Of a DNA stretch of 64,000 bases, positions 31,801 through 34,800 are shown piece by piece. This stretch comes from Escherichia coli. GTDB lineage: Bacteria > Pseudomonadota > Gammaproteobacteria > Enterobacterales > Enterobacteriaceae. The stretch lies in NCBI RefSeq assembly GCF_017348835.2, contig NZ_CP071375.1; one strand, given 5' to 3'. Position numbers: made by a program. How positions within the stretch are numbered: the stretch's first letter is position 1; every line of letters starts with the position of its first letter.

Positions 31801-34800
31801 TTGCTATTTGCTCTGCATGATGACGAGAAATACCATTATTTATAACATTCCGGGCAAGTGATGAATGTGTGTCTTTAAGTCCTAGTGCATCGCGAAGCAA
31901 TTTTTGTGCATCTACAGGTATATCAACACCATTGAGTGAAAGCTTTGCATTGCCGAGTCCTCGAAATGTATCCATAAACATAGAGCTGAATGGTGTAGGC
32001 CCGGAAAGCGGATCTGTTTGAGTATTATGAGGAATCAAGGTTGCTGATAGTTTTGACGTAAAACTAAGTAGATTGTGCATTGACTTATGATCAGTCAGGT
32101 CCATCTTAGATAAGGCACGATGAACCTGAATGTATGGCATGTGGAGATTGATGGGTAAAGATTGTAATAACCTATTTTGTTCGTTTGACTCCAGGAGCAT
32201 AAGAATCTTTTCATTATCTGGTGTGCGAATCTCGGCTTCAACAAGTTCGCTGTTAGTGACGGAAATTCTTAAGGATGAGCCATCTGCAAAATTAGCATAT
32301 ATTCTGCCCAATTCATTAGGCGCGGGAGATACAGGTTCTAAAACGGTTAACAACTCTTGAAATGTTTGCCTTTCACTACGAGTATACGTTGGATTCCATA
32401 AACCAAAACTAAGAACTTTTAGTAATTTTTCAGCGCATGACATATCATTCCACTGCTTTTTAAAATCAGAATTAATTCTAATTGCAGCATCTAAAACTAA
32501 AGATGCGGAATTATTATTAAGTCCGTTTATCATGAGAGATTCCCCTGTCTCATTTATTATGAATGATTCGACAACAGATATCATATAGCATGATATAGTG
32601 TCAATAATATATAAGCTATTTATAGCGAGAGTTTTAAATGTATAGAGAGTTATTTTTTTAAATTAGAGGAAATACTCCTCTAATGACGAACAATAGATTT
32701 TCATTGATTCATCAGCAATAGTTTTTGTGCCTACGAAAAGGTTGTAATTATTTACATTAATAATAGCATTCAGAAAAAATTTTTATTGTGCTGATAAAAT
32801 ATACCATTAGTGATTAGTTTAGATACCTGGCTTTCAGGCAACTTCTTTTTGTCTGTATATAAGGGATGATTACTAAGGTGGTACATTGATATCAGTTAGC
32901 TTTCCCTTTTCGGGTTACTTTATCAAAGAGTCCTCTTTATAGAAGAGCGCATTGTGAGTTTTCCAGATTGACTTAAACGTGTGGCGGCATCACACCGATC
33001 AACACGATCTGCAGCAAAGGGCAGGTGTAACCAGGCCCATCTTAGCGCTATGCACTTTTGAGCCACTGAGCTTGCTAACCGTTTACCCGGCTTTCACTGA
33101 GCTAATTACGGCGATAATCTGATGCCCAGTAAAACGGACTTGATGTATGACGGGTCCTCTTTTGCGGGATAGATATGGGAATATTTCTTAATGCGAATGG
33201 TACGGTTATGCGGGGGGGACAAACATGGTTGCTTGTTCTGCCATTTGTTCCTTGTTCCTTTTTATACCGCCGCCGCTCCCGGTCAGCACTGGGGAATAGG
33301 GGGTTGAGGTATATCTGCTCCTTATGTCAGGGGAACAGGTAATAGCTATATAGCGGAACGTCTTAGTGCTGTAGTTATTCCATTTTGCTATTTGTCTAAT
33401 AGGACTAATCTTAAAGAAAACAAAACGATTAACTAAATGGAAAGGCAATTGTTAATGGCGTTTGCTAAAGAGATGAAATTCTTCTACTTTATTGATTTTG
33501 AATGATTTTTAAGAAATGTGATTTTTTTGTTGACATTTAATGATAATGTGTTTTACACATTATACATCGGTGATTAATAACTTTTATAAGGATTTTGTTT
33601 GATGAAGTAGATGTGTTCTAATTTGATAGATAAAACGTTATCTCACATAATTTATATCATTCGATTAATTGTTGATCCTTCCTGATAAGGATAAGATTGC
33701 TAATAGCTTAATATATTAAAGCATGCGGAGATTATTTATTATGAATATGGAAACTAATTCGCACACAACAAGCCCATACATTCAGCTTATTGAGCAAATT
33801 GAAGTGTTACAACAGGAAGCAAAGCGACTGCGAGAGCAGGAAATTCAAAGTGTAATTGAGTCGATTCAAAAGCAGATTACTTATTACAATATAACCCTAC
33901 AAGAGCTGGGATATACTAATGTGCCTGATGATGGCCTTGCTCGCCGGAACTCATCGAAAAGAGTTTATTATCGCAATGAAGAAGGGCAGACCTGGTCGGG
34001 AGTTGGCCGACAGCCACGCTGGCTTAAAGAAGCACTGTTGAATGGAATGAAGAAAGAAGATTTTCTTGTGAAGGACACCGAAGACGAAATAATACCGCTG
34101 AAAAATATTTAACATGAAATCATTAAATGATAACGATAACTGAACTGGAAGACGAAATAATAAAAAATAAAGAAGCCGCAAATATTTTCATTGAAAAAAT
34201 AAACGACAAAAAGAACGAAATCCATGAAAAAATGAAACACCCCTTGGATAAAGTTACCTACAATGAAGCAAAGGAACTGCTCATTGCCTGCGATGCGGCA
34301 ATCAGGATCATAGAGATAATGCTAATCAGAATTAATAATAAATAGAGGACGAGTATTGTGAGCCAAACAAAAAATAGAGAACTGTTAGATAAAAAAATAA
34401 GATCAGAAATTGAGGTGATAAAAAAAATAATCGCCGAATTTGATGTCGTAAAAGAAAACGTTAATGCTTTAAGTGAAAAAGCAAAAACAGATCCTCAGGC
34501 TGCAGAAAAATTAAACAAATTAATTGAGGGGTATACATATGGTGAAGAGCGAAAATTATATGATTCTGCCTTAAGTAAGATTGAAAAACTAATAGAGACA
34601 ATGAGTCCTCCAAGATCTAAAAACCAATCAACAAAAAATCAACGGAATAAAAATAATAGAAAAATAGTATGACGATTTTGAATAAAATAGACTATAACTA
34701 TTATAAATTAATTAATTATCCAATTATGATGGTCCATGATGAATGGCTAGGTGATTTAACCGGTGTCAATCAGGTTAGTTTTCGGCATTTAAGAGAAAGT

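Follow-up and report, generated by a model that had tools for sequence, protein, structure and literature searches.

The GC-rich patch that interrupts the AT-rich DNA between espG and ler in Escherichia coli's locus of enterocyte effacement (LEE) was examined in a 64,000-nucleotide stretch of contig NZ_CP071375.1 (RefSeq assembly GCF_017348835.2), which will be called the window. The core of the patch, at 33026-33225 on the minus strand, is very probably an internally deleted insertion sequence (IS) of the IS3 family that is 200 bp long, keeps both of its termini and has no transposase. This element will be referred to as the mini-IS. We consider it highly likely that the patch as a whole is an ordinary evolutionary scar with an IS3-family remnant at its core and that it holds no new functional element. 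The GC island in front of ler, the master virulence regulator, would then be a dead insertion sequence with no hidden gene or RNA.

The original prediction had described a GC-richer patch at 32950-33400, and the composition profile and direct counts show that the patch is real and that about 32940-33352 (no strand assigned) describes its limits better. The whole patch is 48.7% GC by direct count, versus 29.0% for the espG-proximal part of the spacer (32585-32939) and 27.2% for the LEE1 promoter region (33351-33722). In a sliding profile of 200-nt segments the GC content was 47.5-48% over 32900-33399 and 25-30% on both sides, which confirmed the deviation, and a binomial test of the patch against the local background of 28% GC gave P ~6e-19. 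When the patch was ranked among 411-nt segments of the island part of the window, 5.4% of them matched or exceeded its GC content. The spacer that contains the patch is 1138 nt long from the start of the longest espG open reading frame (ORF) at 32584 to the start of the ler ORF at 33723, or 1207 nt when it is measured between the ends of the RefSeq coding sequences. Both of the G/C runs cited in the prediction are present, gcggggggga at 33210-33219, which falls inside the left terminus of the mini-IS, and ccgccgccgctcccgg at 33267-33282. The 80-aa ORF at 33206..33448 on the minus strand was also found and starts with TTG.

The relationship to the IS3 family was detected by blastn, which matched window positions 33076-33214 to the 5' ends of IS3-family elements at 73-76% identity with E-values down to 4e-15. 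Hundreds of chromosomes and plasmids of E. coli and Salmonella yield such matches, and the orientation of the transposase in them corresponds to the minus strand of the window. The element used as the reference IS, the nearest intact relative that was found, is 1206 bp long and is located on plasmid NZ_CP169310.1 at 40347-41552 (L005 1447-2652), where its transposase is annotated as WP_085948398.1. The reference IS is intact with a frameshifted transposase; its OrfA matches the Pfam family HTH_Tnp_1 at 1.4e-27 and its OrfB portion scores 160.8 bits against the NCBIfam model NF033516 (IS3 family; cut-off 160). A profile of five LEE lineages was compared with the reference IS using nhmmer and matched its left end with an E-value of 4.9e-24. 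The similarity extends upstream of the orfA start into the leader and the left inverted repeat (IRL).

The LEE sequence adjoining the left-end match was aligned by nhmmer to the right terminus of the reference IS with an E-value of 0.065. In each of the seven LEE lineages the local alignment with the terminal 70 nt of the IS reached its very last base (...TTACA, window 33026) and stopped there, and the shuffle test of the right-end alignment gave p<=0.01 in each of the seven (500 shuffles). For the right-end remnant of the window (33026..33062), 0 of 500 shuffles scored as high. Additionally, a synthetic version of the reference IS without positions 175-1165 aligned end to end with 33026-33225 (76-78% identity), and both termini of the mini-IS (the IRL at 33225 and the right inverted repeat, IRR, at 33026) align with the 5'-TG...CA-3' ends of the reference IS. 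The inverted repeats of the mini-IS were not detected by a repeat search, as they are too diverged, and were recovered only via the alignment to the reference IS.

Read along the minus strand, the element begins with the IRL and the IS leader (33149..33225), where TGTTTGTCCCCCCCGCATAACCGTACCATTC from 33225 in the window corresponds to TGTAAGTATCCCGCATAATCGTGCCATTC at the start of the reference. These are followed by the stub of orfA and the deletion junction (33063..33148), which were recognized by six-frame translation against the OrfA of the IS. The stub comprises ~25-30 codons, in which ATA (33148-33146) replaces the ATG and a stop codon lies in frame; its translation reads VRFTGHQIIAVISSVKAG, a stop and TVSKL, versus MRKARFTEHQIIAVIKSVEAGRTVKDV in the OrfA of an intact relative. 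The orfA stub of E. albertii keeps VKNVRREAGSS, versus VKDVCREAGIS in the reference. The element ends with the IRR remnant CTCAAAAGTGCATAGCGCTAAGATGGGCCTGGTTACA (33026..33062), which aligns with the 3' end of the reference IS, CTCAAAAAATGCATGGAACTAAAACGGGTCTATTTACA. IS positions ~175-1165 are missing, and with them the remainder of orfA, the site of the frameshift and the whole of orfB (the DDE transposase); the mini-IS is for this reason a dead deletion derivative and no functional member of the IS3 family. The OrfA pattern is presumably like that of the IS407 group.

Several observations weigh against this reading. The E-value of 0.065 for the right end is weak when taken alone, and the match becomes credible through its exact terminal position and the shuffle tests. 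The translated orfA stubs of the window and of O157 gave no match in Pfam, being too short and too decayed to reach significance, and the assignment of the IS therefore rests on homology at the DNA level. No clean target-site duplication of the short kind (3-5 bp) typical of the family was found: a possible ATG...ATG in the L006-type haplotype requires a 1-nt shift of the terminus, none was seen in the O157 haplotype, and the site is obscured in the window by an 11-nt deletion. The two flanks of the mini-IS, which account for about half of the patch, fall beyond the IS termini and are unexplained by it. Sequence alone is no proof that an element is functionless. The patch is also situated between divergent virulence operons in H-NS-silenced DNA, where it is possible, though rather unlikely, that a 400-bp GC-rich interruption has a physical effect.

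It is proposed that an ancestor of the Escherichia LEE acquired, upstream of ler, an IS3-family element of ~1.2 kb that was oriented toward espG. Its interior of ~1 kb would then have been lost, probably via recombination or slippage between two near-identical 12-nt repeats, and the 200 bp left over would comprise both termini, the leader and the orfA stub. In the reference IS the breakpoints fall at near-identical 12-mers, GGCCGGTATCTC (position 169, in orfA) and GGCCGGGTTCTC (position 1160, near the 3' end), and the deletion junction was modelled between the GGCCGG repeats that lie there (IS positions 169 and 1160); the copy in E. albertii is colinear across the junction GGCCGG/GTTCTC. For the deletion itself we infer a mechanism based on microhomology. 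The single copy, having no transposase, would since have been passed on vertically with the LEE while decaying at a roughly neutral rate. The ~48% GC content of the core would reflect its IS origin, as the reference IS is 48.2% GC versus <30% for the surrounding non-coding DNA of the LEE. The LEEs of E. coli and E. albertii share the element and its deletion junction, so that both the insertion and the loss of the interior predate the split between them, which dates both events to before the Escherichia LEE lineages diverged. The mini-IS is not a universal trait of the LEE1 operon.

The flanks are not derived from the IS. The suggestion in the original prediction that the patch is a remnant of an inserted element is thus apt for the 200-bp core, with both IS3-family termini, and does not extend to the flanks. 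The left flank (32940..33025, no strand assigned) is ~86 bp long with 50% GC and is 77.6% identical to that of EDL933, and the right flank (33226..33352, no strand assigned) is 127 bp long with 49.6% GC, holds the ccgccgccgctcccgg run and is about 79% identical to EDL933 over 33226-33292. Both flanks are kept among the LEEs of E. coli; the left flank is mostly missing from the E. albertii-type spacer and the right flank is conserved in the LEEs of E. coli and E. albertii. Blastn of E. coli genomes, plasmids and phages found no relatives of the flanks outside the LEE, and plasmid and phage searches with the whole patch returned only the ~139-nt match to the 5' ends of IS3-family elements. A self-BLAST showed no repeat of the flanks within the window, and six-frame translation of the joined flanks gave nothing recognizable as coding. 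Two small deletions distinguish LEE lineages in this region. The lineage of the window has lost 11 nt between 33025 and 33026 (TTAATGAATNT in others), just outside the right terminus of the IS, and the O157/E2348 and L006 types have lost ~22 nt of the right flank (33293-33320) that are present in the window, E. albertii and L013.

Among the complete E. coli genomes 696 are ler-positive, and blastn found the mini-IS in 690 of these, always as one chromosomal copy; none of the matches listed falls under an annotated feature. Sequence identical to that of the window is present in O26-, O103- and O121-type strains of bovine and human origin. One of the six genomes that did not score was examined, the most divergent of the ler-positive genomes, from the dog isolate E. 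coli 19KM2326N (L043). Its espG-ler spacer shares 99.8% identity with the one in E. albertii NBRC 107761, and its patch has 46-47% GC with an alignable, more decayed mini-IS that has the same deletion junction. This identity would fit an exchange of the LEE between the two species, and the other few non-scoring genomes are assumed to carry the E. albertii-type version as well. In metagenome contigs there were 10 exact matches to the mini-IS core and all 10 lie beside ler. The mini-IS is therefore a single-copy element that is confined to the LEE. Although the patch is uniformly present, RefSeq annotates no feature between espG and ler in the window, and the patch is unannotated in all eight E. 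coli records whose ler-upstream region was inspected. Of the finding that would have refuted the original prediction, a patch both uniformly present and annotated, one half therefore holds. The remnant had thus gone unannotated, and it is an ordinary decayed IS3-family element.

A divergent, Salmonella-type LEE has a ler-upstream spacer of 769 bp that is uniformly 24-29% GC and shows no trace of the mini-IS or of the patch. Because this LEE is without it, the patch is dispensable for a LEE1 operon. The mini-IS can be regarded as an unannotated landmark of the sampled E. coli and E. albertii LEEs that is absent from the Salmonella-type LEE. The divergent locus was recovered from the Logan metagenome contigs L029 and L030 (3232-4000); its Ler is 65-66% identical and tir-cesT-eae is inverted directly upstream of ler, an arrangement described for Salmonella enterica subsp. 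salamae (PMC3408504). The Ler search of genome contigs gave two useful loci from outside E. coli, Citrobacter rodentium not being among them, and two Logan contigs that end inside or just past an enterobacterial repetitive intergenic consensus (ERIC) element are uninformative on the mini-IS.

The original prediction had raised the possibility that the patch is lineage-specific, and a recent insertion peculiar to the LEE of O26/O103/O121-type strains was suggested by a megablast search in which only 235 of 5426 genomes carried the patch. This has practically no chance of being correct, as the identity threshold of megablast is roughly 85% and hides diverged copies, so that the 235-genome figure is an artefact of sensitivity. 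The blastn count given above includes colinear elements in O157:H7, E2348/69, O111, O145 and other strains, with a further one in E. albertii, and the explanation was refuted. It was also asked of the patch whether it holds a small protein gene, either the 80-aa ORF or the orfA stub. The ORF does exist, and older annotations seem to have counted a feature in the ler-espG interval, as there is a numbering gap at Z5141 and E2348C_3969 in the tables of PMC3891560. However, the ORF has a TTG start and spans the IS terminus, the right flank and the ERIC site, and it is broken in other lineages by a 127-bp ERIC and the 22-nt indel; the orfA stub has ATA for ATG, an in-frame stop and no Pfam match, and RefSeq annotates nothing here in the eight records inspected. 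A coding function is extremely improbable and the ORF is not considered a gene. A literature search, which did not reach the original LEE sequence papers of 1998-2001, returned nothing relevant on Z5141, ECs4589 or E2348C_3969 and no description of an ERIC or an IS remnant upstream of ler. A structured non-coding RNA or small RNA, which had also been proposed, would fit a GC-rich island within AT-rich non-coding DNA and the terminator-like hairpin at 33136-33157 (+), but it is unsupported by the other results and very unlikely. Rfam gave no usable match, with none at the gathering score in the EDL933 or E. albertii versions and only far sub-threshold matches at E<=10 in the window. The fold z-scores of the mini-IS were +0.22 and -0.31 for the two strands, which is the level of the shuffled controls, and RNAalifold with six lineages gave an unfavourable covariation term (+3.2), many pairs being broken in the E. 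albertii-type sequences. Promoter-like sites are no commoner than in shuffles and none lies in the patch. The LEE-associated small RNAs that were compared map elsewhere, sRNA350 being the 3' untranslated region of cesF (PMC5030294); EvrS is not LEE-encoded according to its paper, and the EsrL paper states no location. A tRNA and tmRNA scan of the whole window found none. The hairpin itself is followed by TCTTTTG and lies inside the mini-IS on the ler-directed strand; there are 2 such sites in the region, close to the 0.9 +/- 1.0 of shuffles.

Co-option of the patch as a cis-regulatory module was also weighed, either as a GC-rich break in the AT-rich H-NS tract that insulates the divergent espG/rorf1 and LEE1 promoters or as a distal platform for regulators of ler. 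The patch lies between divergent operons, E. albertii and about 99% of the ler-positive E. coli genomes have kept it, and the far-upstream region of ler in enterohaemorrhagic E. coli (EHEC) binds Cra at about -350, immediately to the right of the patch and the ERIC (PMC3482499). Retention is, however, expected anyway for an immobile remnant in a vertically inherited island, and the lineages vary by indels, by the presence or absence of the ERIC and by IS2 and IS3 insertions in or next to the patch. The Salmonella-type LEE is without the patch, and the ler promoter fragments of PMC3482499 stop short of the mini-IS of EDL933, their limit being -393/-450 (coordinates converted here). With third codon positions as the yardstick, no sign of purifying selection on the patch was seen between the window and EDL933: the identity is 85.0% for the mini-IS and about 78% for the flanks, versus 88.5% for espG third positions and 87.1% for ler third positions, so that the divergence is at or slightly above the third-position rate of the neighbours and the flanks are more diverged. 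Such co-option is considered unlikely. A bolder version, in which the IS remnant and the flanks now serve as a domesticated boundary of ~400 bp that binds H-NS poorly and uncouples the silencing and the anti-silencing by Ler of the espG/rorf1 promoter from those of the LEE1 promoter, and in which the locus is also a preferred hotspot of recombination and insertion that defines the left edge of the LEE core, is quite improbable. From these comparisons we infer that the mini-IS would be without function, and an IS3-family scar is preferred as the explanation of the core of the patch.

Other mobile elements have also entered this locus. A 127-bp ERIC, an imperfect palindrome of a kind repeated many times in enterobacterial genomes, is present upstream of ler in the LEEs of O157:H7, E2348/69, O111 and L006-L009 (EDL933 L002 2441-2567), and the same insert was found in 5425 of 5426 E. 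coli genomes with a median of 11 copies. Its site, TATATA/GCGG at 33352..33353 in the window (no strand assigned; two LEE-lineage alignments), is empty in the lineage of the window and in E. albertii, and Escherichia sp. MOD1-EC7003 (L013) has an ERIC that is partly deleted. An ERIC was considered as the identity of the patch and was rejected, the site in the window being empty. In the O111:H8-type and L008-type LEEs, IS2 joins at ~33010/33011, 15-26 nt outside the right terminus of the mini-IS, and espG/rorf1 are no longer beside ler. These IS2-bearing loci are L004 (1330-2500), L008 (1237-2500) and L009 (1331-2500), and the end of IS2 is GGGGCAAATCCA. The rearrangement of espG/rorf1 in O111:H8-type LEEs was already known (PMC10982417, citing Ogura et al. 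2009). In L008 the DNA to the left of IS2 is matched, the other way round, by 28826-28923 of the window; this points to an inversion or deletion mediated by an IS. In Escherichia sp. MOD1-EC7003 (L013 1-170) the 3' end of another IS3-family transposase, which ends in LSPEQFENQNLA and a stop, abuts the mini-IS at ~33190, where the contig ends; this is a third independent IS event at the locus. The idea of an ancestral junction, also contained in the original prediction, proved only partly apt. LEE architectures do differ within 15-26 nt of the right terminus of the mini-IS (IS2, O111-type), with other mobile elements beside it. The locus can be viewed as a recurrent landing spot for mobile elements (ERIC, IS2 and another IS3-family element) at which the gene order of the LEE varies.

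The Cra site of EHEC is located next to the ERIC. A Cra footprint was reported on the EHEC ler promoter "around -350 bp" (PMC3482499), and in EDL933 the ler ATG is preceded, at a distance of 379 nt, by TGAAACGGTTCA, which adjoins the right end of the ERIC (L002 2441-2580). Comparison with EDL933 shows that the window has a degenerate counterpart, GCGGAACGTCTTAG at 33353..33366 (+), of the EHEC Cra box (...GTGAAACGGTTCAG...), with what appear by eye to be about 3 mismatches in the core half-sites. The Cra-dependent, sugar-responsive control of LEE1 may differ in O26/O103/O121-type strains. For ler promoter constructs and for comparisons of LEE1 across serotypes it is of importance that the far-upstream region differs, both in the presence or absence of the ERIC and in the Cra box, which is altered in O26/O103/O121-type LEEs.

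The window contains the LEE pathogenicity island joined to the core chromosome, with basR through cadC at 1 to ~28.2 kb. At the cadC-side end of the island (28422-30217) there are a partial tyrosine recombinase, a DUF957 gene, a frameshifted transposase and a truncated espS, and rorf1 adjoins them. The rorf1 homologue is located at 30423-31241 (-) and espG at 31388-32533 (-), the longest ORF of the latter reaching 32584. On the other side of the spacer ler is found at 33741-34112 (+), with its longest ORF starting from 33723, and is followed by the LEE1 operon.

The mini-IS can be compared with four known systems. Like the IS3-family element of NZ_CP169310.1 it has TG...CA termini, a leader and the first ~30 codons of orfA (the helix-turn-helix region), which match at 73-78% DNA identity; unlike that element it lacks ~1 kb, is single-copy and immobile, has lost its start codon and carries an in-frame stop. 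In E. coli Nissle 1917 (L001) there are decayed IS3-family copies on the flanks of the colibactin island. The mini-IS resembles a miniature inverted-repeat transposable element (MITE) in its size of ~200 bp, in having both terminal inverted repeats and in having no transposase. MITEs are dispersed, whereas the mini-IS is undispersed, with one copy per genome in 690 genomes and all 10 metagenome copies beside ler. As it is single-copy and confined to the LEE there is no MITE family, and the mini-IS is a solo deletion derivative and not a member of a mobilized family. The ERIC adds to the GC-rich character of the same spacer in O157, E2348/69, O111 and other LEEs, where it lies to the right of the mini-IS at a distance of about 105-130 bp depending on the lineage, but its sequence is unrelated to the patch and the window has the empty site. 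IS2 likewise belongs to the IS3 family and is found, at the ler-proximal boundary of O111:H8-type LEEs, at the same spot as the right terminus of the mini-IS, but it is much younger, nearly full length, on the opposite strand and absent from the window.

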